37,247 nt of DNA from an uncultured archaeon (lineage in GTDB: Archaea; Altiarchaeota; Altiarchaeia; IMC4; SCGC-AAA252-I15), in NCBI GenBank assembly GCA_964423225.1, contig CAYREE010000005.1, forward strand, positions 1 to 37,247, given 5' to 3'. Numbering within the stretch: position 1 is the first letter of the stretch; each line of letters starts with the position of its first letter. The notes under the pieces are model-generated. The model saw only the letters and a list, made by a program, of their open reading frames with translations, had not been told where the DNA came from and ran no database searches. The position numbers and the translations under genes were made by a program. Below are positions 1,067 through 3,752 of the stretch, in pieces.

Positions 1067-2182
1067 CTACTTTTTCAAAGCTTTCTCCACGTCTTCCTGT
1101 GTATTCCTCAGCCTAATAAACCTGGTCTGACCGCGTCCCGATGCTGCCACAGTATCTATCAGCTTGCAGTGTTCCAGTTTCTTAAGCATCTCATTATAGC
1201 GTTTGACTCCAAGTCCCATCGCATCCCTCATCTTATCATAGATGGCTCCCGATTTCTCCCCGTCATTCAAAGCAATGACTCCAAGAAGCTTCTTCTCGTC
1301 TTTACTCAATGCTTTTACAGTCTCTATAAGATCAAGTTTCTGAGAGTCTTTCTCATATGCCTCTTCAACATGACTCTTATCCACATTTCTTTTCGCATCG
1401 CGTTCAGCAAGTAATGCTGCACGACGTATCAAATCTATACCGACCCTGAGGTCTCCTTGTTCAGCGGTTTTCTCTGAAACATATTCAACCAAGCTTTTCC
1501 CGATGACCCCCTCATATAACCCGTATTTCACCCTGTTTGACAGTATATCACAAACCTCATCCTGACTATATGGTGGGAAATAAACTCTCACCGGGTTGAA
1601 GACGCTGAGCGTCTTTGCTTCAAGTCCTTGCATAACATTCTCATCTATCATTATGCCGATGATACCAACCTTATCATAACCATATGTTGAATGCGCTTTC
1701 AGTAGATCAATAAGAAGATTGTTGACAGTCTTGTTCAAAAACAATAAGTCCAATTCATCCAATGCGACGCACAAGGTCTTACCTTCACGCGCAAGCTTCT
1801 TAAAAACCTTCTCCTTTATCGCGTTCAACGGCTTGCCAGTATCCGGGGGACTGTGACCGAAGACTTCCTCATGTATCCTAGAGAAAATACTAAAGCGAGT
1901 ATTATGATCCTCACAATTCACGTATACCGTAGTGATCTTACCACTCAACTCCCTTACCTGGTTGAACAAGTATTTCACACAAGTCGTCTTACCCGTACCA
2001 GGCGGCCCGTGGACGAGAGTGTTTATCGTGTTCACACCCCGTAATCCAGGCTTTATTGAAAGAGAGATCTCCTTCATCTGGTCGTCGCGGTGGATGAAGT
2101 CTTCTGGAACATAACTAGGGGTGAAGACTTCCTCGCTCTTAAAGAGCGTTTCCTCTGCTAGAAGTATGTCTTGTGGTTTCAT
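1067..2182 (-). CDS. cdc6: Orc1/Cdc6 replication initiation protein
   Basis: YVPEDFIHRDDQ, Walker A GPPGTGKT, YVNC, Walker B VALDELD, FPPYS, GDLRVGIDL and a C-terminal winged helix with GRGQTR. Confidence 0.97.
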   Translation of the reverse strand: MKPQDILLAEETLFKSEEVFTPSYVPEDFIHRDDQMKEISLSIKPGLRGVNTINTLVHGPPGTGKTTCVKYLFNQVRELSGKITTVYVNCEDHNTRFSIFSRIHEEVFGHSPPDTGKPLNAIKEKVFKKLAREGKTLCVALDELDLLFLNKTVNNLLIDLLKAHSTYGYDKVGIIGIMIDENVMQGLEAKTLSVFNPVRVYFPPYSQDEVCDILSNRVKYGLYEGVIGKSLVEYVSEKTAEQGDLRVGIDLIRRAALLAERDAKRNVDKSHVEEAYEKDSQKLDLIETVKALSKDEKKLLGVIALNDGEKSGAIYDKMRDAMGLGVKRYNEMLKKLEHCKLIDTVAASGRGQTRFIRLRNTQEDVEKALKK

Positions 2183-2206: not shown

Positions 2207-2214
2207 TTAAAAAA
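2207..2214 (-). promoter_or_regulatory. Candidate TATA box for cdc6 (TTTTTTAA); may double as a U-tract terminator for the upstream element
   Basis: Minus-strand TTTTTTAA 25-32 nt upstream of the cdc6 ATG, the spacing expected for a leaderless archaeal transcript. Confidence 0.45.
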
Positions 2215-2448
2215 GAGGGGTCTGGGGCAATAGTTTCGAAGGTGGTTTATTAGATGTATTTAGGCATGAAGCCTAGTTGACGGTAGGCGTACAGTTTGTC
2301 CTTACTGTCGCCTGGGGGGGTTTGACATGATTCCAATCCAGCCATCCAAGTGATTGTCCTTTTCATCTTTTATTTTACCTCGTCTTTTTGCCCCAGATGA
2401 TCCAAGTGGATTATGATCCTTGGGGTGAAGCACCCCAACCACCCATCC
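2214..2448 (-). ncRNA. Candidate structured non-coding RNA (SRP-RNA-like topology, family unassigned)
   Basis: Perfect 10-bp long-range pair 2221-2230/2388-2397. Hairpins at 2420-2438, 2285-2313 and 2261-2275. Nested pairs agatg/catct and cgaaggt/acctcg. 5' GGAUGGGU can pair with 3' ACCCCUCU. TATA-like box upstream, T6 downstream, no long ORF. Strand is not certain because some G-U extensions favour +. Confidence 0.5.
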
Positions 2449-2469
2449 GGATTATAGAATTCTCGCACG

Positions 2470-2478
2470 TTTAAAAAA
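2470..2478 (-). promoter_or_regulatory. Candidate TATA box (TTTTTTAAA) for the structured RNA; alternatively the terminator of the GNAT operon
   Basis: Centred ~26 nt upstream of the GG at 2448 on the minus strand, and ~30 nt downstream of the stop at 2508. Confidence 0.4.
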
Positions 2479-2507
2479 CACTTATCTAAGAGAGCAGTGG
2501 AAAAGTA

Positions 2508-3752
2508 TTAGTTAAGACTTTTAGTGTATAGTACTCCATCGACTCTATCATCAAGCCCACCGATTATTCTTTGTCCTACTCTAAAGCTTGCTCTTTGATA
2601 TCCCTTATCAGTGGATTCGTCTTTTACTGGTACTATAGAATTAAGTGATGTGGAACCATATTTTCTTGCTACTTGTTCAGAGACTCTGATAAGACCCTCG
2701 AATAGCTCTGGCTTGTCATGATCTTCATCCAGTACTGGTCCATAGACATATGCTTGGCCGTTTGGGTTAAAGAGCATTCCCATGACACCTACAACATTTT
2801 CCCGGTCCTTTAATCCTAATAGGACTCCGGACCATGACATCATACGCAATGTGAATGTACTTGGCTCCATAGTGGAATTTTCAATTCCTACGAGTGTAGC
2901 ACCTAATATGTCCTGATCGCTTTTGAGCTGTTGTAATGAAATATCTTGGATTGTCTCAGGTATTTCTAATGGAGGATATTTTAGATGGAATCCTACTCCC
3001 GTGGCTTTCTTAAAGTATAGCATGCCACGTTTCTCTTGGCAATGCTCTGGCCTTATGATATGTGCGACCTGAAATCCTTGATCGAATGCTTTTTGGATAT
3101 TGGGGAAATCGTTATCCTCTACTGCTAACTCGTTTTTTCCTGTAGTATCATGTCTTCCCATTATCTTGATTTGTCCGTCTCTGATCCTTGAACCAACGTC
3201 TTTCTCATCTATCTGTTCTACTGGTAATCCTACTGTTCGACGTGTTAATAATCTGTGTTCATCGGGTCCGTATATGTCCCTTCTAAATCCTATCCCAATG
3301 TTGCCTGCCTTGTTGATTATTGCATTGACTGCCGGTCCGTTAACCGGGTCTACAGTCCCCCAGGTAAAACCGTATCCTTGTTCAGCGACATCTTTGTCAA
3401 CATGGTCGTATAGGCTTCTTGATAGTTGTCCTCCCCTATATTGTTCTGTTATCGTAATCCCATGCCTGAATACTCCCCTCTCTTTTTCTGGGGGAAAGAC
3501 ATACTGGCACATACCAACAAGCATTTTATCGTCCCATGCGCCTATCTCTCGTCCAGCACGGGCTATTAGCTGGTGAGTGTATAATGATTCAGTCCTTGTT
3601 TTACCAAATCCGAGGAAATCAATGTATCTTGCCATGATAAGATCTAGATCTTCTGTGATGGCCCCGATCTTTACCCTGTCCCTCATGTATTCTTTGGGAC
3701 GGACGGGCAGATCACCAGTTTGTGTTGCTCTAAGATATGAATTCATTATCAC
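2508..3752 (-). CDS. Tandem GNAT-fold acetyltransferase-like protein
   Basis: GNAT1 has HGITITEQYRGGQLSRSL (acyl-CoA motif A), WGTVDPVNGPA and DIYGPDEHRLL. A second GNAT-like unit has VVGVMG ... YVYGPVLD ... YQRASF. Its start overlaps the upstream stop. Confidence 0.7.
   Translation of the reverse strand: MIMNSYLRATQTGDLPVRPKEYMRDRVKIGAITEDLDLIMARYIDFLGFGKTRTESLYTHQLIARAGREIGAWDDKMLVGMCQYVFPPEKERGVFRHGITITEQYRGGQLSRSLYDHVDKDVAEQGYGFTWGTVDPVNGPAVNAIINKAGNIGIGFRRDIYGPDEHRLLTRRTVGLPVEQIDEKDVGSRIRDGQIKIMGRHDTTGKNELAVEDNDFPNIQKAFDQGFQVAHIIRPEHCQEKRGMLYFKKATGVGFHLKYPPLEIPETIQDISLQQLKSDQDILGATLVGIENSTMEPSTFTLRMMSWSGVLLGLKDRENVVGVMGMLFNPNGQAYVYGPVLDEDHDKPELFEGLIRVSEQVARKYGSTSLNSIVPVKDESTDKGYQRASFRVGQRIIGGLDDRVDGVLYTKSLN

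Follow-up and report, generated by a model that had tools for sequence, protein, structure and literature searches.

The DNA analysed here (the window) is a stretch of 37,247 nucleotides from an uncultured archaeon of the phylum Altiarchaeota (GenBank assembly GCA_964423225.1, contig CAYREE010000005.1, positions 1 to 37,247). The element under study lies in a 325-nt spacer (2183-2507) between two genes of the minus strand: a GNAT-domain gene, the right-hand neighbour (2508-3752), and an orc1/cdc6 gene (1067..2182; Cdc6_lid match, E=6e-18), which encodes an accessory Orc1/Cdc6 paralog that we call Cdc6-A. The initial annotation had proposed that this spacer holds a structured RNA of about 235 nt, possibly a highly derived signal recognition particle (SRP, 7S) RNA, a new class of non-coding RNA or a leader of cdc6, and had left its strand undecided. 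Comparison with relatives leads us to a different reading: the element is probably an autonomous small gene of the minus strand whose mRNA folds back around an open reading frame (ORF), and not a non-coding RNA.

All the pairings named in the initial annotation were found in the sequence. The decamer TCTGGGGCAA at 2221-2230 is the exact reverse complement of 2388-2397 (10 bp), CGAAGGT at 2237 and ACCTCG at 2377 form an inner pair, and the hairpins 2261-2275, 2285-2313 and 2420-2438 were confirmed. The TTTAAAAAA box occupies 2470-2478 and an A6/T6 tract lies within 2207-2214. The structural signal in this single sequence is modest. A perfect inverted repeat of at least 10 bp arose in 11 of 300 mononucleotide shuffles of 2183-2507, and the fold z-score was -2.88 on the plus strand and -2.84 on the minus strand, with 1/200 and 2/200 shuffles, respectively, folding equally well.

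A DNA similarity search with the spacer gave matches in only 3 of 41 related genomes, including that of the window itself (G000). Relatives were therefore collected through the Cdc6 protein, and we gathered the regions upstream of its orthologues from 19 of the 21 family genomes and from 8 full orthologues in a sister family. Set side by side, the spacers of the relatives share a fixed order of blocks. This comparison backs a discrete structured element of about 235 nt, which we place on the minus strand, as well as a TATA box about 26 nt before 5'-GGAUGGGU and, at the far end, a terminal helix with a T tract. In the relatives, the outer helix is conserved, as is the position of the 2420-2438 hairpin.

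A conserved small ORF

The spacer contains a small ORF of 38 codons plus stop (MKRTITWMAGLESCQTPPGDSKDKLYAYRQLGFMPKYI; 2250..2366, minus strand), recognized by its homologues, its codon pattern and a family profile. Its ATG is at 2366, its codons span 2366..2253 and its stop codon occupies 2250-2252; a Shine-Dalgarno (SD) sequence, GAGGU, precedes it at 2377..2381. An equivalent frame, with a GGAGG-type SD and an ATG, is found upstream of the Cdc6 orthologues in the relatives listed. Alignment of 18, then 29 homologues revealed that M1, Y26, G32 and F33 are invariant and that P35 is at least 90% conserved. The conserved part is restricted to the C-terminal 11 residues, which carry the motif Y-x-[YF]-x-x-h-G-F-x-P. 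The codons of the invariant residues are exchanged synonymously (GGC/GGA/GGT/GGG for glycine, four codons for proline, TAC/TAT for tyrosine and TTC/TTT for phenylalanine), and the entropy summed over 14 codons amounts to 12.8, 13.4 and 20.8 for codon positions 1, 2 and 3. This pattern indicates that the small ORF is coding and that it is under purifying selection as a protein.

Because this 38-codon ORF is conserved, the hairpins 2261-2275 and 2285-2313, which by inspection are not kept in the relatives, must be considered as coding sequence, together with most of the 'long interrupted rod' and 'distal branched domain' seen in the initial annotation: that part of the proposed RNA is mostly the small ORF with its SD site. 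Since the rod is mostly coding, the spacer element is not a new class of non-coding RNA and is better described as a structured small mRNA.

A profile built on the family gave exactly one match per genome in 22 of the 61 genomes of the phylum, all of them in families f1 and f5. Searched against 1.84 billion representative proteins, it retrieved 23 sequences at E<=1e-3, of which 22 are 36-78 aa long and the remaining one, a protein of 2731 residues, is spurious. The two that could be named, MFH0860053.1 and MCX6695810.1, come from metagenome-assembled genomes of Candidatus Altiarchaeota and are annotated only as 'hypothetical protein'; both are true homologues of the 38-residue protein of the window and have the Y..GF.P motif in common with it. 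The window's own copy is absent from the protein collection searched. Six of the small proteins had no Pfam match at E<=0.001, and the ESM Atlas returned only unnamed clusters, with an uninformative best score of 0.85. A literature search on the Altiarchaeota replication origin, on archaeal small ORFs associated with cdc6 and on Altiarchaeum Cdc6/Orc1 found nothing on the unit. The unit is real, conserved and previously undescribed; it encodes a family of proteins of 19-78 residues without a family model and adds a further case of small genes missed by annotation pipelines.

In family f5, the ORF has 45-69 codons and a short leader devoid of the two helices described below, and at the loci measured its stop codon lies -1 to 43 nt from the start of Cdc6-A. 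The f5 peptides also share a conserved N-terminus, MIYPTL.EC. With this spacing, the f5 small ORF and Cdc6-A look like a translationally coupled two-gene operon.

The long-range helix P2 and the putative leader hairpin P1

The small ORF is flanked by the two arms of a helix, P2. Its 5' arm (UCUGGGGCAA; 2388..2397, minus strand) is complementary to its 3' arm (UUGCCCCAGA; 2221..2230), and the SD can pair with an anti-SD segment (ACCUUCG on the RNA, 2237..2243) located 7-13 nt after the stop codon, as seen in the sequence and in predicted folds. P2 thus defined, that is 2388-2397 with 2221-2230 plus the SD/anti-SD pair, encloses the whole ORF in its loop in family f1. The geometry is well kept among the 15 genomes compared. 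Arm 1 starts 3-5 nt after a conserved dyad in 14/15 genomes and runs into the SD, while the 3' arm is found 3-35 nt after the stop codon, the anti-SD and arm 2 starting 3-19 nt after the stop in 12/15 genomes.

The arms are complementary in every genome, yet their sequences are unrelated between many genera: at least six unrelated arm sequences occur in the 15 genomes, as exemplified by TCTGGGGCAA, CGGGAGGCGTCC, GGGG[T/C]ATAGG, GAGGGCGTGAA, TGGCGGAGCGTGC and GGGGGGA...GAAATAAAA. MAFFT set the arms out of register, both in full and in helix-trimmed alignments, and we therefore tested P2 by an alignment-free permutation of arms between genomes. In 14 of the 15 genomes, the cognate arms share a longest Watson-Crick run of 8-13 bp; the fifteenth has 5+5 bp around a G.U pair. 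This length averages 10.0 bp for cognate arms and 6.0 bp for 192 cross-genus pairings. None of 20,000 permutations gave a mean as high, and 1/20,000 did when each genus was represented by a single genome (n=8). A compensatory A-T to T-A change was also found within the window's own genus. These results argue that P2 is maintained by compensatory change across the relatives, so that covariation, left to be checked in the initial annotation, is present at this helix. Of 12 full-length RNAs folded, 10 contain P2 in their structure of minimum energy; the partner of the SD window is mostly located downstream of the stop codon. An mRNA predicted to fold around its whole ORF thereby displays unusually clear compensatory evolution. 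The other pairing proposed, an outer helix between 5'-GGAUGGGU and ACCCCUC before the T tract, is less certain: it forms in some minimum-energy folds, but by inspection the relatives do not consistently have its partner sequence.

Upstream of P2, the leader contains a second pairing, the hairpin P1, whose assignment rests on pairing and conservation in the relatives. It is composed of a 5' strand (UGGGUGGUUG; 2436..2445), an apical hairpin of 8 bp (2420..2438), at a position where the relatives vary in length from ~5 to ~60 nt, and a 3' strand (2400..2413) that includes the near-invariant dyad ATCCACTTGGAT at 2400-2411. The P1 blocks GGGUGGUUG and CAAUCCRCUUGG are nearly invariant and able to form a hairpin. 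In the alignment, 85% of 120 cells pair, versus 27-52% when the 3' partner is slid, and G.U pairs are frequent in this helix. The genome has a single match to the extended motif AATCC[AG]CTTGGAT. The 12-nt dyad has another exact copy at C13:17980, inside a coding sequence and with no context in common. At 2344..2352 of the minus strand, in the variable N-terminal part of the small ORF, the dyad recurs in degenerate form (ATCCAAGTG) between similar flanks; this copy, present in the window genome only, suggests a local duplication.

Promoter motif, strand and linkage to Cdc6-A

Upstream of the element, at 2490..2507 on the minus strand, lies the motif ACTTTTCC-ACT-GCTCTC, which follows the family pattern CTTTTCC-N3-GCTCT. 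A 10-nt spacer separates it from the TATA box of the unit (TTTTTTAAA on the minus strand; 2470..2478), a TATA-like tract present at the same place in the relatives. This arrangement would place the transcription start near 2446-2448. The pattern CTTTTCC-N3-GCTCT has 64 matches in the 21 family genomes, against 7 for a reversed control. Among 30 loci examined for context (L065-L094), the motif together with a TATA-like tract precedes the small-ORF unit (7 loci), radA (3 loci in three genera), a NurA gene, an XPD-like helicase gene and several unknown small genes; in the genome of the window it also precedes a tyrosine recombinase gene. Further sites in this genome are at C20:7943, C80:5317, C56:7122 and C212:89. 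Such a distribution is regulon-like. At one of these sites (C56:7122-7300, L035), what comes after the motif and its TATA box is not an obvious ORF but a strong hairpin (UAUGGGAGGA...UCCUCCCAUA), which may represent another small transcript of the regulon.

Several observations settle the strand left open in the initial annotation as the minus strand. The order motif, TATA box, gene is the same as at radA and other genes, which argues that the spacer is transcribed leftward. The SD and the ORF themselves lie on the minus strand. In P1, three G.U/U.G columns, as well as a U facing the sole variable base of the dyad (A in 6 and G in 5 sequences), can pair only on the minus-strand RNA. Downstream of P2, a few bases rich in C lead into a T-rich tract. 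In the window this tract (T6, TTTTTTAA; 2207..2214, minus strand) is located 26-33 nt before the ATG of cdc6, and in most genomes it lies 25-33 nt before the Cdc6 start codon, which is the position of a TATA box for a leaderless mRNA.

The cdc6 gene next to the unit has a paralog elsewhere in the genome. Cdc6-B (G000:C149:584-1864) was detected in 58 of the 61 phylum genomes and in 13/13 of those of high quality, and it is closer to Sulfolobus Orc1-1 (E=2e-61) than the window gene is (E=5.6e-33). Cdc6-A is present in 28/61 phylum genomes and in 6/13 high-quality ones (families f1 and f5 and one f3 genome). This distribution indicates that the cdc6 of the window is an accessory paralog and not the core initiator of the lineage. 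The ~120-nt spacer upstream of Cdc6-B on C149 contains no obvious repeats.

Twenty of the 22 genomes with the small ORF also carry Cdc6-A. The gap between the two genes is below 120 nt in 18 of these 20 genomes, and 1.4 and 2.5 kb, on the same strand, in the other two; in one further genome, a fragment of Cdc6-A lies at the end of a contig. The small ORF and Cdc6-A are thus co-inherited. Genome G016 has an intact unit, complete with a T9 tract, that an insertion of ~1.3 kb splits from Cdc6-A. Genome G010 contains two units, one with a simple leader (L097, on C18) and one with P1 and P2 around a diverged ORF of 36 codons (L069, on C63); no cdc6 gene lies beside either unit, and a search for Cdc6-A in this genome, which is 85% complete, gave no match. 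Since the unit is intact apart from cdc6 in G016 and stands alone in G010, it is autonomous, and the proposal that it is a simple cdc6 leader does not hold. Two genes of the G016 insertion (C19, L091) look like a toxin-antitoxin pair: one has a HEPN domain (27.2 bits, above the cut-off), and the other matches a nucleotidyltransferase weakly (20.9 bits, below the cut-off).

Proposed gene model and competing explanations

According to the gene model that we favour, a leftward promoter formed by the upstream motif and the TATA box (2470-2478) would drive the synthesis of an RNA of about 235 nt, from ~2446 to ~2210. This RNA would begin with the leader hairpin P1, followed after 3 nt by the 5' arm of P2. 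By pairing the ribosome-binding region (2388-2397, with the SD at 2377-2381) with the sequence that follows the stop codon (2237-2243 and 2221-2230), P2 would keep the small ORF silent, or throttled in translation, until the helix is opened; it probably also stabilises the transcript. The T-rich tract after P2 would end the small transcript and double as the TATA box of the next gene, cdc6, expressed as a leaderless mRNA. The small protein may be a functional partner of Cdc6-A, or serve the same programme of DNA replication/repair. Complex prediction for the small protein and Cdc6-A (score 0.00) was uninformative as to binding.

Hok-type type I toxin mRNAs offer a precedent for such a fold: their small ORF is silenced by a long-range 5'-3' fold-back that hides the ribosome-binding site. 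The window unit resembles them in that its SD is predicted to pair near the 3' end of the same transcript, with the ORF in the loop. It differs in its peptide, which is hydrophilic and basic and has no membrane helix, in that no antisense RNA or toxin signature was seen, and in being archaeal and linked to orc1/cdc6. A hok-like type I toxin was rejected as the identity of the gene, as such a toxin is a hydrophobic membrane peptide.

A number of observations weigh against the gene model. With regard to P2, several genomes give a duplex energy that is as favourable, or more so, for the opposite strand, and the A.C mismatch present at the SD in three genomes would become a G.U pair there; the strand can therefore not be read from P2 alone, which in principle could be an inverted repeat acting at the DNA level. 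P1 shows no covariation beyond that of shuffled alignments (110/500 reach the observed score), and its invariant dyad could equally be a protein-binding site on the DNA. A T run of at least 5 nt ends the unit in 8/15 genomes only, the others having TTCTTTAAA-like sequences. With regard to the protein, the predicted structure of the peptide is poor (predicted local distance difference test score, pLDDT, of 56.7), with one helix at residues 20-31 and the rest disordered. In genus g8 (L015, L016, L019 and L020), the ORF within P2 has only 19-20 codons (MIxKPxCIGTAKPL...) and lacks Y..GF.P, and the retention of P1 and P2 around such a cut ORF hints at an RNA scaffold with a role of its own. Conversely, the f5 ORF exists without P1 or P2, which means that the fold is not required for the protein. 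Finally, none of the sequencing runs listed as containing the region was an RNA run, and the transcript ends, the translation and the RNA fold are all deduced from sequence comparison.

Among the alternatives, the most probable one, which we nevertheless hold to be unlikely, is that of a regulatory upstream ORF. The nascent C-terminal motif would stall or pace the ribosome near the stop codon, where it would cover the anti-SD and arm 2, open P2 and thereby set the transcription or translation of cdc6-A. Conserved C-terminal arrest motifs are known in SecM and TnaC, and the restriction of conservation to the C-terminal 11 residues, including in f1 a proline 3-10 residues before the stop, would fit such a role, although genus g8 does without the motif and the conserved N-terminus in f5 is rather what is expected of a folded or binding protein. 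The anti-SD and arm 2 are within reach of a terminating ribosome in the 12 of 15 genomes where they start 3-19 nt after the stop, and the short distance between the f5 stop codon and the start of cdc6-A suggests coupling. In contrast, a control of cdc6-A by the small ORF is difficult to reconcile with the intact unit 1.4 kb away from cdc6-A in G016 and with the units standing alone in G010, and in most f1 genomes the intervening sequence contains a TATA-like box for cdc6-A.

It is very unlikely, in our view, that the spacer is a replication-origin element in which the dyad ATCCACTTGGAT and the G-rich inverted repeat constitute Orc1/Cdc6 sites resembling origin recognition boxes (ORBs), used for origin firing or for autoregulation, with an incidental ORF. 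The element is directly upstream of an orc1/cdc6 gene, but the encoded Cdc6 is the accessory and not the universal paralog. The dyad is near-invariant across 9 genera without covariation, as would be a protein-binding site; nevertheless it is present as a single full copy with one degenerate copy, its extended motif occurs once in the genome, there is no ORB cluster in the spacer, and family f5 has no dyad at all. As for the arms of the inverted repeat, they change wholly between genera yet stay complementary, which is typical of a base-paired helix and not of a site recognised by a conserved protein, and the space between them is selected coding sequence. The GC content across 2201-2450 is 0.42-0.49, equal to or above that of the flanks, so that no AT-rich unwinding region was found.

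A report on archaeal oriC (PMC1904270) gives the Pyrococcus mini-ORB as TTCCAGTGGAACT, with cores 'TTCC' and 'GAA'. With reference to that description, the dyad, of the form ATCC-N4-GGAT, resembles the mini-ORB, and the spacer shares with ORB/mini-ORB sites its position next to orc1/cdc6, a dyad of the type xTCC-N-GGAx and inverted-repeat flanks. It differs from the sites so described in that it has a single dyad, leaves the cores 'TTCC' and 'GAA' unmatched, and combines the absence of an AT-rich region with RNA-like arms, a coding interior and an accessory paralog. In a sister family, the small-ORF/cdc6-A unit of G024 has, immediately upstream, a non-coding tract of ~700 nt with 6-30% GC (C19; L043:500-1200). 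This tract looks like a replication origin, and an origin may lie near the unit in some genomes such as G024; the window holds nothing comparable, and the origin reading is weak for its element.

Least probable of these alternatives is a non-coding or dual-function RNA, such as a protein-binding or antisense small RNA, in which the P1/P2 scaffold would be the product and the ORF secondary: P1 and P2 are indeed kept around the 19-20-codon ORF of g8 and around the diverged ORF of G010:C63, and arm 1 keeps its fixed distance of 3-5 nt from the dyad in 14/15 genomes, but wherever the ORF is present it is under clear purifying selection, the short g8 peptides by inspection differ mainly at synonymous sites, and neither an Rfam match nor a second copy or a target was found.

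The SRP RNA reading is refuted. Rfam gave no match at the gathering score in the window and none in 12 orthologous loci of relatives; at E<=10 on 2100-2600, the archaeal SRP RNA model (RF01857) was not among the results, the sole match, of 12.7 bits, being attributable to chance. The genome possesses a canonical archaeal SRP RNA elsewhere (G000:C135:4188-4467), which matches RF01857 with 140.7 bits over model positions 1-317, for a cut-off of 96.5. The spacer element is of comparable size to archaeal SRP RNA and, like it, is predicted to fold as a rod with a terminal helix, but it does not match the covariance model and its 'rod' is coding sequence. The false lead of a second, derived SRP RNA is thus removed.

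Returning to the small gene folded around its ORF, we considered what its link to an accessory Orc1/Cdc6 might mean. A study on Sulfolobales (PMC6061795) describes Orc1-2, a non-initiator Orc1/Cdc6 paralog that controls the DNA-damage response through a promoter motif. Cdc6-A is similar in being a non-universal paralog beside a universal one and in the motif common to DNA-repair genes and to the paralog's own unit; the motif of the window genome differs, being CTTTTCC-N3-GCTCT, upstream of the TATA box, and not ANTTTC, and Cdc6-A is a putative regulator by analogy. In a limited literature search, we found no partner small ORF known for Sulfolobales Orc1-2. By joining these elements, one can tentatively propose a model that we regard as rather doubtful: Cdc6-A would be a transcription regulator binding CTTTTCC-N3-GCTCT (at radA, nurA, xpd and the tyrosine recombinase gene, and also at its own unit), with the small Y..GF.P protein as a dedicated partner or antagonist, and P1/P2 would gate the synthesis of this partner, the whole serving DNA-damage or cell-cycle control in Altiarchaeota. 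If true, this would be a second, independent case, after Sulfolobales Orc1-2, of an Orc1 paralog turned regulator, here with a small-protein cofactor and an RNA switch. Because the unit is tied both to an accessory Orc1/Cdc6 and to a motif common to recombination and repair genes, it offers an entry point to the regulation of replication or repair in an uncultivated archaeal phylum.

The locus also coincides with breaks in assemblies of related genomes. In G001, of the same genus, the assembly breaks inside the unit, and the contig ends concerned (the tail of L005 on C5 and the head of L007 on C9) share an 18-nt overlap; in several other assemblies, too, a contig ends no more than a few kb from cdc6-A. 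The region 1900-2800 of the window is present in 3 DNA-type metagenome runs, all from one study.

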